DNA of 64,000 bases from an uncultured Candidatus Saccharibacteria bacterium. GTDB taxonomy: Bacteria > Patescibacteriota > Minisyncoccia > Phycocordibacterales > UBA2100. Below are positions 14,025-39,790 of the stretch, one piece after another (the first letter of the stretch is position 1; the number at the start of each line of letters is the position of its first letter). The notes under the pieces are model-generated. The model saw only the letters and a program-made list of their open reading frames with translations, did no database searches and was not told the DNA's origin. The DNA is taken from positions 4,256-68,255 of the forward strand of contig CAZUVH010000006.1 in NCBI GenBank assembly GCA_964623775.1, written 5' to 3'. Position numbers and translations under genes: made by a program.

Positions 14025-14116
14025 ACATTTCAGCGCACGACCGATCAGGTACGGCGCTTTTTCTTTATCTAAAATATTCACGCAAAAATTCCGCTTTCGC
14101 GGAATCCTTGCATTTT

Positions 14117-14224
14117 CGTGTTGCGGGGGCAAGAACCCTGGGAAACCCACGGTTTTCCCAGACCTTCCTCCACGGGGAAACAAATGTTTCCCCGACCCCC
14201 TTCAATTCCAGCCCCCGCAACACG
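14117..14224. repeat. tRNA-associated structured repeat element, copy X: core with two hairpins, closed by arms that copy the 3' end of the adjacent tRNA-fMet
   Basis: 14117..14130 CGTGTTGCGGGGGC is identical to the tRNA 3' end region (plus strand); 14203..14224 is its 22-nt inverse complement. The core CTGGGAAACCCACGGTTTTCCCAG..CGGGGAAACAAATGTTTCCCCG is about 85% identical to the reverse complement of 37610..37680. Confidence 0.5.
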
Positions 14225-14274
14225 CTCTTAAAACAAAAACGCCTCCTTAAAGGAAGTGTTTTTGTCATTACGTG

Positions 14275-14346
14275 TTGCGGGGGCTGGAATTGCACCAGCG
14301 ACCTCCAGGTTATGAGCCTGGCGAGCTACTCCTGCTCCACCCCGCT
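14275..14346 (-). tRNA. tRNA-Met (initiator-like, anticodon CAU), no encoded CCA
   Basis: Reverse complement reads GCGGGGTGGAGCAGGAGTAGCTCGCCAGGCTCATAACCTGGAGGTCGCTGGTGCAATTCCAGCCCCCGCAACA, a near-match to E. coli tRNA-fMet including the three G-C pairs in the anticodon stem. Confidence 0.8.
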
Positions 14347-16597: not shown

Positions 16598-16852
16598 CTA
16601 TAGCAAAGTGTTCCTCAGTCTTTTACGAAGCTGCGCGTAAGCTCTACCTTTCAATTTTAATGCCGCTTCACGTAATCGAGCATCTTTCTCGACTTTATAT
16701 GCTTCGTAATAGAGTAGCTCAAGAGGTCTTCGAGGCCTGGTCGATTTCACATCGCCATCGTTATGTTCTTTCAGGCGTCGTTTAAGATCCGTAGTTGAGC
16801 CGATGTAGCTTTTCCCGTCACTCTTGCTGCGAATTACATATACGTAAAACAT
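16598..16852 (-). CDS. GIY-YIG nuclease family protein (small, YhbQ/UPF0213-like)
   Basis: YVYVIRSKSDGKSYIGSTTDLKRRLKEHN is a GIY-YIG motif in an 84-aa protein. Confidence 0.75.
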   Translation of the reverse strand: MFYVYVIRSKSDGKSYIGSTTDLKRRLKEHNDGDVKSTRPRRPLELLYYEAYKVEKDARLREAALKLKGRAYAQLRKRLRNTLL

Positions 16853-16863
16853 AACTGATTCAG

Positions 16864-16968
16864 GGTGTCAGGACACCACACCAATAGCTGTCACTTGTAA
16901 TCACATCTCAAAATACCATATGCACCGGCGTCTGATTCCGTTGAGAATTTCAACTATTGGTGTGGTGT
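16864..16968. mobile_element. MITE-like palindromic element, copy 1, inserted at the 3' end of tRNA-Met(CAU)
   Basis: Terminal inverted repeats ACACCACACCAATAGCTG (16873..) and CAACTATTGGTGTGGTGT (..16968); a flanking direct copy GGTGTCAGG (16864..16872) repeats the tRNA 3' end. The same repeat core CACACCAATAGCTG recurs at 33101..33208. Confidence 0.5.
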
Positions 16969-17039
16969 CAGGGGCGGGAGTCGAACCCGCGACCTTAGCG
17001 TTATGAATGCTATGCTCTAACCATCTGAGCTACCCTGAC
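16963..17039 (-). tRNA. tRNA-Met / Ile2 (anticodon CAU), CCA encoded
   Basis: Reverse complement GTCAGGGTAGCTCAGATGGTTAGAGCATAGCATTCATAACGCTAAGGTCGCGGGTTCGACTCCCGCCCCTGACACCA gives a cloverleaf with a CAU anticodon; elongator Met versus lysidine-modified Ile cannot be told apart by eye. Confidence 0.8.
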
Positions 17040-23468: not shown

Positions 23469-23726
23469 GCCGACGTAGCTCAGTTGGTAGAGCACGTCCT
23501 TGGTAAAGAAAATTGCCCGCTGGTGGAGCAATCTACCAGATGTAACTCGAATAACGGTTAAAGGCCTCCCGGAGGTTCAGACCGTGGCGAATCGACCGGA
23601 TTCGCCCGAACGACTGACAAGAGCGACTCACGTAGTCGAATATACAGTCTAATCCTCTGATAATTCATAAACAGAGGTAGGAAATGAAGGACGAGGTCAC
23701 CGGTTCAATCCCGGTCGTCGGCTCCA
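23469..23726 (+). tRNA. tRNA-Thr (GGU) interrupted by a group I intron; CCA encoded
   Basis: Exon 1 23469..23504 (GCCGACGTAGCTCAGTTGGTAGAGCACGTCCTTGGT) and exon 2 23687..23726 (AAGGACGAGGTCACCGGTTCAATCCCGGTCGTCGGCTCCA) give an anticodon loop UUGGUAA and a perfect acceptor stem. Confidence 0.75.
23505..23686 (+). other. Small group I-like intron (about 182 nt) in tRNA-Thr(GGU)
   Basis: 5' splice site after U36 and a terminal G at 23686; internal GACTG..CAGTC (P7-like) and CGACTCACGTAGTCG hairpins. Less clearly conserved than the tRNA-Asp intron. Confidence 0.55.
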
Positions 23727-23781
23727 AATGCTAGGGCTATATGCAGGCCACTTTAAAAAATTAAAGTGGTATGATGTTACG

Positions 23782-37504: not shown

Positions 37505-37575
37505 TGCGGGATCGTCTAATGGTAGGACTACTGCCTCTGGAGCAGTGTATCTTGGTTCGAGTCCAAGTCCCGCAG
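37505..37575 (+). tRNA. tRNA-Gln (CUG), no encoded CCA
   Basis: TGCGGGATCGTCTAATGGTAGGACTACTGCCTCTGGAGCAGTGTATCTTGGTTCGAGTCCAAGTCCCGCAG, with a 3-bp D-stem typical of Gln/Glu tRNAs and anticodon loop CUCUGGA. Confidence 0.8.
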
Positions 37576-37595
37576 CTAACGAACGAAGTGAGGAA

Positions 37596-37695
37596 GATGC
37601 GGGACTTGGATTGGGAAGGGGTCGGGAAACGGGAGTTTCCCGTGGAGGAAGGTTTGGGAAAACCGTGGGTTTCCCAGTCGTCCTTGTCCCGCAGC
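37596..37695. repeat. tRNA-associated structured repeat element, copy Y: same core as 14117..14224 in inverse orientation, with arms copying the tRNA-Gln 3' end
   Basis: 37596..37609 GATGCGGGACTTGG is the inverse complement of the tRNA 3' end CCAAGTCCCGCAGC (1 mismatch); 37685..37695 TGTCCCGCAGC is a direct copy. The core hairpins are CGGGAAAC..GTTTCCCG and TGGGAAA..TTTCCCA. Confidence 0.5.
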
Positions 37696-37757
37696 AAATA
37701 TAGTCTCATTTTTTGCTGGGTAGACCATTGTGTGGCCCATGGTACGATTGGGCCCAT

Positions 37758-39544: not shown

Positions 39545-39790
39545 ATGTACTTCATATACATTCTCGAGTGCAAAGACGGTTCACTCTATACCGGTATCAC
39601 GACAGACGTGGCTCGGAGATTTGAACAGCATAAAGCGGGAAAAGGTGGCGCATATACACGGTCGCACGGAGCAAAGAAAATTTTGTATACGGAGAAAAAA
39701 CTCGATAGAAGTCGTGCTCTGAGGCGGGAAGCCGAGATCAAAAGTTGGTCACGAGAAAGGAAGCTTTCTCTCACACGATCACACCTGTAA
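39545..39790 (+). CDS. GIY-YIG nuclease family protein (small, UPF0213-like)
   Basis: MYFIYILECKDGSLYTGITTDVARRFEQH GIY-YIG motif; 81 aa. Confidence 0.7.
   Translation: MYFIYILECKDGSLYTGITTDVARRFEQHKAGKGGAYTRSHGAKKILYTEKKLDRSRALRREAEIKSWSRERKLSLTRSHL

Follow-up and report, generated by a model that had tools for sequence, protein, structure and literature searches.

A probable non-coding integrative mini-element at the ends of tRNA and other conserved genes in Patescibacteria

We analysed a 64,000-nucleotide stretch of an uncultured Candidatus Saccharibacteria genome (hereafter the window) and found, directly downstream of its tRNA-Gln gene, a structured sequence (copy Y) that is probably the integrated copy of a non-coding, non-autonomous integrative mini-element inserting in the ends of conserved genes. 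According to this interpretation, the family would insert in the terminal 10-50 nt of highly conserved genes and bring along a replacement gene end (A and its trailer) that displaces the resident one, an inverted copy (A') of 10-24 nt across the junction, and a nearly invariant core of two hairpins, behind which the junction is copied imperfectly. This would shift the original gene end ~120-150 nt downstream, and the gene, here that of tRNA-Gln, would still be functional.

Results

Anatomy of copies Y and X

The target gene, tRNA-Gln(CTG), occupies positions 37505..37576 of the + strand (ARAGORN, Rfam RF00005), its sequence from 37562 onward being TCCAAGTCCCGCAGCT. The proximal target copy A (37562..37577, +) comprises the 3' strand of the T-stem, the 3' strand of the acceptor stem, the discriminator and 2 nt, and is the 5' arm of the A/A' hairpin, since it forms with 37595-37610 an inverted repeat of 16 nt that is 94% complementary. 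A' itself (37595..37610, +; AGATGCGGGACTTGGA) is the inverse complement of the tRNA-Gln 3' end with one mismatch. The initial annotation, made from the letters alone, had described such an inverse complement about 20 nt after the tRNA, and it is indeed there: 37596-37609 (GATGCGGGACTTGG), 19-20 nt past tRNA-Gln, is complementary to the tRNA end CCAAGTCCCGCAGC except for that mismatch. The loop between the two arms (37578..37594, +; 17 nt) contains the motif ACGAACGAAGTGAG, which takes the same loop position beside other tRNA types in other genomes (L026, L061, L033, L012, L022).

Next to A' lies the conserved core of 68 nt (37611..37678, +), delimited by a covariance-model match of 93.2 bits, by alignment and by folds. 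It consists of a purine-rich leader (GGGAAGGGGTC), a first hairpin, HP1 (37623-37642, +; GGGAAAC-GGGA-GTTTCCC), the linker GTGGAGGAAGGTT, a second hairpin, HP2 (37655-37676, +; TGGGAAAACC-GTG-GGTTTCCCA), and a final AG. The right end of Y ('prox', ..TCCTTG; 37679..37686, +) copies the target TCCAAG with an AA -> TT change, hence a TT/TT tandem mismatch against A'; the same CAAG -> CTTG change is present at rpmG and tRNA-Asp sites. The distal copy of the tRNA-Gln 3' end (TCCCGCAGC and AAA; 37687..37698, +) follows as a direct repeat, and the direct copy GTCCTTGTCCCGCAGCAAA at 37680-37698 is 84% identical to 37561-37579. The two hairpins, the direct copy after them and the location between tRNA-Gln and the M14 peptidase gene, which is the gene downstream of Y, had all been reported in the initial annotation and are borne out here.

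Judging from the sequence, the distal copy at Y would be the displaced original end of tRNA-Gln with its ancestral trailer, and the last ~9-16 nt of the present gene, together with its trailer, would have been supplied by the element. The empty tRNA-Gln site of a relative reads ..CCCGCAGC|AAAT, which equals the trailer past the distal copy of Y and not the one past the tRNA. The segment inserted would measure ~119 nt (roughly 37568-37686), with ..GTCCAAGTCCCGCAGCAAATATAG as the predicted empty joint and ..GTCGTCCTTG|TCCCGCAGCTAACGAACG as the predicted circle joint.

Copy X (14117..14292, -) has the same order of parts as Y and lies at tRNA-Met(CAT) (14274..14346, -; ARAGORN, Rfam RF00005), a gene with a promoter-like site at 14382-14354. 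Its A (14271-14292, -) and A' (14203-14224, -), which cover the tRNA end and 4 trailer bases, are complementary at 22 of 22 positions, and the spacer between them holds a terminator-like hairpin (14242-14256, -). The core spans 14137-14205 (-) and the distal copy 14117-14135 (-). Right after the latter stands a further terminator-like hairpin (14080..14113, -) that is probably the ancestral terminator of tRNA-Met(CAT). The inserted segment would be ~154 nt long, and the predicted circle joint is ..GGGTTCTTG|CCCCCGCAACACGTAATG.

Once reverse-complemented, Y shares 82 of 100 bases with X if the whole element is aligned; in the core, 61 of 70 are shared (86%), above the roughly 70% under which the initial annotation would have held its claim refuted. 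Core words of 23 and 15 nt occur exactly twice each in the window, against 0.00 and 0.03 expected from shuffles, and a covariance-model scan of the window retrieved X and Y only. The folds of both copies, whose folding that annotation had also proposed, are far more stable than those of shuffled sequence (z -3.6 to -9.8). Y is thus a second copy with exactly the architecture of X, as had been claimed, and this architecture recurs at ~120 other tRNA loci; the 'inverse orientation' then ascribed to Y holds in window coordinates only, X and Y having the same orientation relative to their tRNAs. When the element is circularly permuted, its right end being joined to A, it is predicted with DNA parameters to fold as a dumbbell (z = -5.1 for Y and -9.8 for X), in which a long stem with a bubble is capped on one side by the loop or terminator and on the other by the two hairpins.

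Other features were recorded in the surroundings of these copies. The distal copy and trailer of Y (37687-37712, +; CCCGCAGCAAAT) can pair with ATTTTTTGCTGGG 8 nt further down, and this pairing may reflect either the terminator that tRNA-Gln had ancestrally or what is left of an older insertion. Two contigs of public assemblies from two sequencing runs (L001, L002) that carry the M14 gene of the window start inside the Y core, at about window position 37615; the Y repeat therefore breaks short-read assemblies beside tRNAs. A GIY-YIG gene of 81 aa lies just past the M14 pair (39545-39790, +), and in relatives (L002, L086, L089, P0005 contig) a GIY-YIG gene is also found near this pair at differing positions, which suggests that it is itself mobile. 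At the other tRNA-Met of the window (16963-17039), the 3' end and 12 trailer bases are repeated inverted 60 nt downstream; a short direct copy comes immediately after the inverted one (GGTGTC CT GACACC), with no cargo between them, the whole arrangement being located at 16872-16969 (-), and an 84-aa GIY-YIG gene (16598-16852) starts 14 nt beyond it. Finally, tRNA-Thr(GGT) (23469-23735, +) is apparently split in its anticodon loop by an insertion of ~200 nt (GCCGACGTAGCTCAGTTGGTAGAGCACGTCCTTGGTAA ... AGGACGAGGTCACCGGTTCAATCCCGGTCGTCGGCTCCA), which is conserved in another genome (L007 ~1080-1340). ARAGORN missed this gene, and Rfam returned no intron match and a sub-threshold partial tRNA match (18.7 bits, E = 0.23, 23469-23525); the insert may represent an undescribed or divergent kind of tRNA intron.

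A family of structured insertions at gene ends

A structural pattern in which the linker and the loops were left free was scanned against 185,579 species genomes. It returned 76 loci, whose hosts are nearly all Saccharibacteria, Paceibacteria, Nomura-, Kaiser-, Yonathbacteria and similar lineages, and a second pattern returned 80 metagenome loci. The core lies 25-130 nt downstream of a same-strand tRNA at 60 of the 76 genome loci and 59 of the 80 metagenome loci. Altogether, ~160 Patescibacteria loci were retrieved, 119 of them linked to tRNAs with ~25 different anticodons, and the orientation of the core to the tRNA is fixed in all 119. Other copies (14 from metagenomes and several from genomes) are located at the ends of protein-coding genes.

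The flanks always reproduce the tRNA of their own locus: 5' of the core stands the end of this tRNA in inverse complement, over a stretch that begins in the T-loop or T-stem and stops a few bases beyond the gene, and 3' of the core its last 10-16 nt or more are copied directly. An A'-type inverted copy is present in 67 of the 144 tRNAs of the first loci, and all but one or two of these 67 come with conserved cargo. All distal copies lie within 100-340 nt, with no ORF between the end copies; tandem arrays, likewise devoid of ORFs, and a three-hairpin variant of the element also occur.

The core is almost invariant across Patescibacteria classes, and so is the linker, although the pattern did not require it. 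Diverged copies show compensatory changes in HP1 and HP2, many HP1 loops are GNRA-like, and both hairpins are found 10-14 nt from the element ends. Whereas A' pairs almost perfectly with the proximal copy, its helix with the distal copy always comprises 2-4 bp beside the core, a small tandem mismatch or bulge, and at least 8 bp. The usual mismatches are TT/TT or GA/AG and arise from AA -> TT or TC -> GA changes in the distal copy (tandem-mismatch counts: TT 23, AG 20, GA 15). The direct repeat is variable in length (10-50 nt), with a systematic change of 1-3 nt. Right ends also exist as the variants ..GTGAGAT, with or without the mini-hairpin AGCGAAGCG, ..GGTTCTTG and ..GTTCAGAT; because each of them recurs beside different tRNAs, they belong to the element. 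No covariation between the variable dinucleotide 5' of HP2 and the right end, of the kind expected for an IS200/605-style guide, was seen by eye. The spacers of 63-75 nt in L065 and L101 are not palindromic. A near-invariant core is unusual for selfish DNA and, as a point against a mobile element, would also fit a functional RNA or a binding site for a host protein.

Database searches returned little. With Rfam, at gathering and permissive thresholds, the window and 20 related loci matched tRNA models only, and nothing else reached E<=10 over the element. No match to the element was obtained in phage and plasmid collections; viral contigs yielded only palindromic tandem units in giant-virus bins, which are not the element. 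The literature, as far as it could be searched (coverage being incomplete), yielded no description of it. Clustering of ~1,600 neighbouring ORFs revealed housekeeping synteny only, and no recombinase, transposase, nuclease or integrase was consistently linked within ~8 kb of ~70 copies. Since no enzyme is linked to the element, we infer that it is mobilised in trans. Moreover, ~25 tRNA types and four protein genes serve as targets, each with a matching A/A', and the specificity would therefore reside in the element's own copy of the target.

The survey also brought up other arrangements. After some tRNAs, the A'-cargo-A frame contains at least two other cargos, conserved and hairpin-containing, with no Rfam match (L014, tRNA-Gly; L064, tRNA-His and tRNA-Arg; L038, tRNA-Met; L042, tRNA-Leu; L037, tRNA-Val; L061; L008, tRNA-Arg). 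One reads AGCGAG..GAGCAGGGCYGAGCGGAG..hairpin..GAGCGCTTGGCC and the other GGAGCGATGTC..hairpin..GCGAGKCGGTGCCCAGAC..hairpin..TAGTCGAGGGAG, the hairpin stems being free to vary and the loops (GACG, AGC) conserved. Half-core-like units (AAGGGGTC followed by a GGGAAAC..GTTTCCC hairpin), again with no Rfam match, are found outside Patescibacteria and away from tRNAs, in Clostridia bins (L032, L039, L051, L078), in L025 and in giant-virus bins (L079-L084). Those of the Clostridia bins lie in a long GCGAAGC-rich intergenic region, followed in L032 and L078 by an ORF starting with MPTFNQL, apparently rpsL; those of the giant-virus bins form tandem palindromic repeats. Repeats exist 5' of tRNA genes too: at least the first 18 nt of the tRNA are copied in direct orientation 90-125 nt upstream of the gene (L015, L024, L027, L028, L062), in L028 along with 36 nt of the upstream flank, which suggests further mini-insertions on this side. 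Small GIY-YIG ORFs of 79-91 aa were found as well (L018 6950-7320, L048 7060-7470, L031 2690-3200, L043 2720-3075, L017 12-261, L008 80-417), and in six of nine cases they end 1-14 nt before a tRNA gene. In L018, L048 and L031, a displaced pseudo-copy of the 5' part of the tRNA precedes the ORF, and this pseudo-copy contains palindromic insertions in the D-loop or T-loop. These ORFs look like bacterial counterparts of mitochondrial mobile endonuclease ORFs.

Filled and empty sites

Five genomes share a block in which tRNA-Gly, tRNA-Arg(CCT) and tRNA-Phe are followed by a convergent gene for a 191-aa DEDD-type exonuclease. In L053 the tRNA-Phe site is empty, the tRNA ending 5 nt from the exonuclease stop codon, and the tRNA-Arg site is filled with the core described here; in L014, L041, L075 and L077, tRNA-Phe is filled and tRNA-Arg is empty. 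The distance from the Phe distal copy to the exonuclease stop codon is 3 nt in L077, 11 nt in L075 and ~40 nt in L014 (beyond the terminator hairpin), and in these three genomes the distal copy takes the position of the tRNA end in the empty locus. At the filled Arg site, what stands past the distal copy (AGATGGTATAATG..) corresponds to the sequence behind the tRNA in the empty locus of L075, whereas the sequence past the tRNA proper is unrelated to it.

Because an orthologous site can be filled in one genome and empty in another, the comparisons being between species and not between strains, the element is an insertion. The insertion polymorphism for which the initial annotation had proposed to look is seen at orthologous loci of related genomes. 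Furthermore, the distal copy abuts the ancestral downstream DNA and therefore is the original gene end; as a consequence, the whole stretch that runs from the junction inside the tRNA through the core has been added. For Y and X themselves, we observed no excised or circular form and no polymorphism within the population. A metagenome scan for the predicted empty tRNA-Gln/M14 site gave no match, and in the synteny search through M14 homologues the contigs with available DNA showed a different context.

Foreign ends at protein-coding genes

Besides tRNAs, the targets are the ends of rpmG, rpsI, fusA and an RNase H gene. There, an intact 'new' end stands on one side of the core and a displaced 'old' end on the other, with differences that are mainly synonymous. 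In rpmG (L33), the new end is ..TAC TGC AAG TGG TGC AGG AAG CAG ACT GTT CAT AAG GAA GCA AAA AAG TAA, and the old one, past the core, is ..TGC TTG TGG TGC CGC AAG CAG ACG GTG CAC AAG GAA GCT AAG AAG TAG; the corresponding peptides are YCKWCRKQTVHKEAKK and C-L-WCRKQTVHKEAKK, and the two ends are separated by eight synonymous differences and the AA -> TT change. In rpsI (S9), new PQWSKR* faces old KWSKR* with differing codons. At fusA (EF-G) and the RNase H-family gene, the element lies at the 5' end: the gene body is joined to a new start codon and a new N-terminus, and the fragment of the old N-terminus is found beyond the core. The RNase H gene has MTFTINTDGGARNN.. as its new and MAVIYTDGGARNN| as its old version, and the other pair of N-termini at these 5'-end targets is new MARDYPLEK.. 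and old MARDYPLQK... The element is upstream and antisense at fusA and RNase H, and downstream and sense at rpmG and rpsI. At all protein-gene targets, the 10-20 nt across the junction recur in A' as their inverse complement, and the A-A' spacer is made of the rest of the imported gene end and foreign flanking DNA, recognisably homologous between hosts (e.g. L101 vs L133). From these comparisons, the proximal, gene-side copy is most likely the imported one and the distal copy the original.

Discussion

How does such an element compare with known systems? It resembles tRNA-integrating islands and CIMEs in several respects: insertion in the 3' part of a tRNA gene, restoration of the gene by an element-borne copy, a direct repeat of the tRNA end, tandem arrays at one tRNA and many boundaries at the T-loop, which is reported to be the classical crossover sublocation for tRNA-integrating elements (Williams 2002). 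As expected of an island or a CIME, the element stands between direct repeats of the tRNA 3' end and leaves the tRNA restored. However, islands measure kilobases, whereas the element measures 120-160 bp with no integrase found nearby, carries the site once more in inverted form beside an invariant two-hairpin core, and uses dozens of targets including the ends of protein-coding genes. It is small, non-coding, hairpin-rich, multi-copy and presumably trans-mobilised, like MITEs, REP/BIME, palindrome-associated elements derived from IS200/IS605 and mitochondrial double-hairpin elements. Unlike in any of these groups, the 'terminal inverted repeats' copy each target and not the element, the direct repeat is imperfect and 10-50 nt long, and insertion is gene-end-specific with the gene restored. 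Indeed, the inverted flanks differ from copy to copy according to the local target, no related IS or transposase lies nearby, and the fixed short target-site duplication of MITEs is absent. Subterminal hairpins at both ends are shared with IS200/IS605 derivatives, but instead of insertion 3' of a fixed tetra- or pentanucleotide without duplication, there are long duplications and an inverted copy.

In mitochondrial mORFs (Allomyces atp6; Glomus atp6, atp9, cox2 and nad3), a foreign end replaces the native one, which persists downstream, and the new and old ends of the hybrid genes differ mainly at synonymous sites (PMC3630166). The same pairing of a foreign gene end with a displaced native end is found at rpmG, rpsI, fusA and RNase H. 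Unlike mORFs, the element is bacterial, encodes no endonuclease or other ORF, and has an inverted site copy and a hairpin core; the GIY-YIG ORFs beside tRNAs in the same genomes are closer analogues of mORFs. A further likeness concerns the attP(+) of CTX phage, IMEX and attC sites, since in the predicted fold two inverted target copies could form a mimic of the duplex with a small unpaired region by the presumed exchange point. Integration of the CTX type is expected to leave the order 'site, spacer, inverted site, rest of element, hybrid site', which is the integrated order of the element. Unlike in Xer/IMEX and integron systems, the target is neither dif nor attI. The RYYYAAC ... GTTRRRY order of attC sites is absent from the stem base, and neither ORF cassette arrays nor IntI were found; GAAC...GTTC occurs in T-loop-class copies only, at the inner and not the outer end of the stem.

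By analogy with these sites, our preferred mechanism, which we put forward as a possibility rather than as an expectation, is a folded single-stranded attachment site with a single strand exchange. In the single-stranded form, A, continuous with the right end, would pair with A', and the resulting hairpin would resemble the target duplex but for a bubble of 2 nt beside the exchange point. Joining of the folded form to the gene would then take a single strand exchange, and replication would resolve the product; such a model predicts the exact order 'gene, A, loop, A', core, hybrid site'. For the flipped dinucleotide, a serine- or tyrosine-recombinase logic was considered and set aside, as it conflicts with the need of these enzymes for identical crossover regions.

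The main alternative, only slightly less likely, is spread by gene conversion instead of site-specific recombination. In that case a nuclease acting in trans or natural transformation would provide the break or the single-stranded donor, homology would be supplied on one side by the gene body and on the other by the distal end copy, and masking of the first copy by the A/A' hairpin would keep the insert from being bypassed. These bacteria are naturally competent, the targets are exclusively very conserved genes, which suits homology arms, and no linked recombinase was found. The new-end/old-end architecture is moreover that of mORF gene hybrids (PMC3630166), and the GIY-YIG ORFs next to tRNAs, three of them with displaced pseudo-copies upstream, would fit a nuclease of this kind. 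However, the distal arm is just 10-16 nt at most tRNA sites, ~25 target sequences would demand a nuclease that is programmable or structure-specific, the model gives no role to the invariant core, and no GIY-YIG gene has core-like ends; for this last reason these genes, tRNA-associated as they are, were not retained as an autonomous partner. The renewal of A/A' upon a change of target is explained by neither the folded-site nor the gene-conversion model. Off-target integration at look-alike sites probably would begin such a change, to be followed by flank capture and mismatch correction in the hairpin. Look-alike pairs include ..GACAG|GTGGCTC of tRNA-Thr and ..CACAG|TGGAGC of rpsI, and the T-loop sequence ..GATTCC and ..GGGATTCCC of RNase H. 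A more speculative and somewhat unlikely proposal is that of a protein-less self-targeting unit with its specificity in nucleic acid, in which A', beside the conserved two-hairpin scaffold, would select the site by pairing or through a target-mimicking hairpin and would be re-templated for each host gene; this would amount to a programmable, host-enzyme-driven swapping of essential gene ends among distant Patescibacteria.

Two further readings were weighed. The very stable RNA folds, the compensatory changes and GNRA-like loops, the very strong conservation of the core sequence and its fixed orientation to the tRNA would all suit a structured non-coding or cis-acting RNA co-transcribed with the tRNA, for instance a trailer small RNA cut out by tRNA-processing enzymes via an acceptor-like closing stem, or a four-segment attenuator-like switch. 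We nevertheless hold it to be improbable: a terminator-like hairpin and a T-run separate tRNA and core in X and many other loci, there is no constant transcriptional context because the element is antisense upstream of 5'-end targets and sense downstream of 3'-end targets, and G-U-type mismatches lack a strand bias (18 vs 14 and 23 vs 14), the asymmetry of G-U and A-C mismatches, taken as a test for RNA structure, not being significant. Moreover, no Rfam family matches, and filled and empty sites, foreign gene ends and target mimicry are unexplained by an RNA. Unlike in a tRNA-like substrate, the closing stem often runs past the discriminator into the trailer; a minihelix or RNase P/Z substrate was rejected on this ground and because terminators precede the core, and an attenuator or leader because X has no co-directional downstream gene. 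The core of a DNA element may still be transcribed as well, e.g. as a guide. Less probable still is a local rearrangement without mobility, in which template switching between T-arm and terminator hairpins would have triplicated the tRNA end with inversion. The single cargo-less arrangement (A, 60 nt, A', A) at 16872-16969 and the long-spacer class, palindromic around the terminator loop, would agree with it; against it stand the conserved cargo of nearly all A'-bearing tRNAs, the same core in ~160 loci of unrelated genomes, the many synonymous changes between proximal and distal ends, and the unrelated trailers. A snap-back (U-turn) origin of A' fits the palindromic long spacers and fails for L065 and L101.

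To return to the integrative mini-element, tRNA-end restoration, foreign ends on mobile ORFs and folded single-stranded attachment sites are each already known. What appears new is their combination in a protein-less element of 120-160 nt with an invariant two-hairpin core, spread throughout Patescibacteria and targeting tRNA, ribosomal-protein and EF-G genes; among gene-end-replacing mobile DNA, it is probably a variant not described before. If our interpretation is correct, the smallest bacteria carry a very small integrative element, of ~120 bases and without a gene, that moves between distant lineages and puts foreign copies in the place of a few dozen terminal bases in tRNA, ribosomal-protein and elongation-factor genes. 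It would let horizontal transfer reach the most conserved genes of reduced genomes, and would account for assembly breaks beside tRNAs in metagenome bins of the candidate phyla radiation (CPR, i.e. Patescibacteria) and be a source of mis-annotated tRNA fragments. The element would also offer a natural system of integration steered by a target-mimicking hairpin or a hairpin-masked homology arm with no enzyme of its own, and its invariant core provides a handle for finding the host factor that acts on it.
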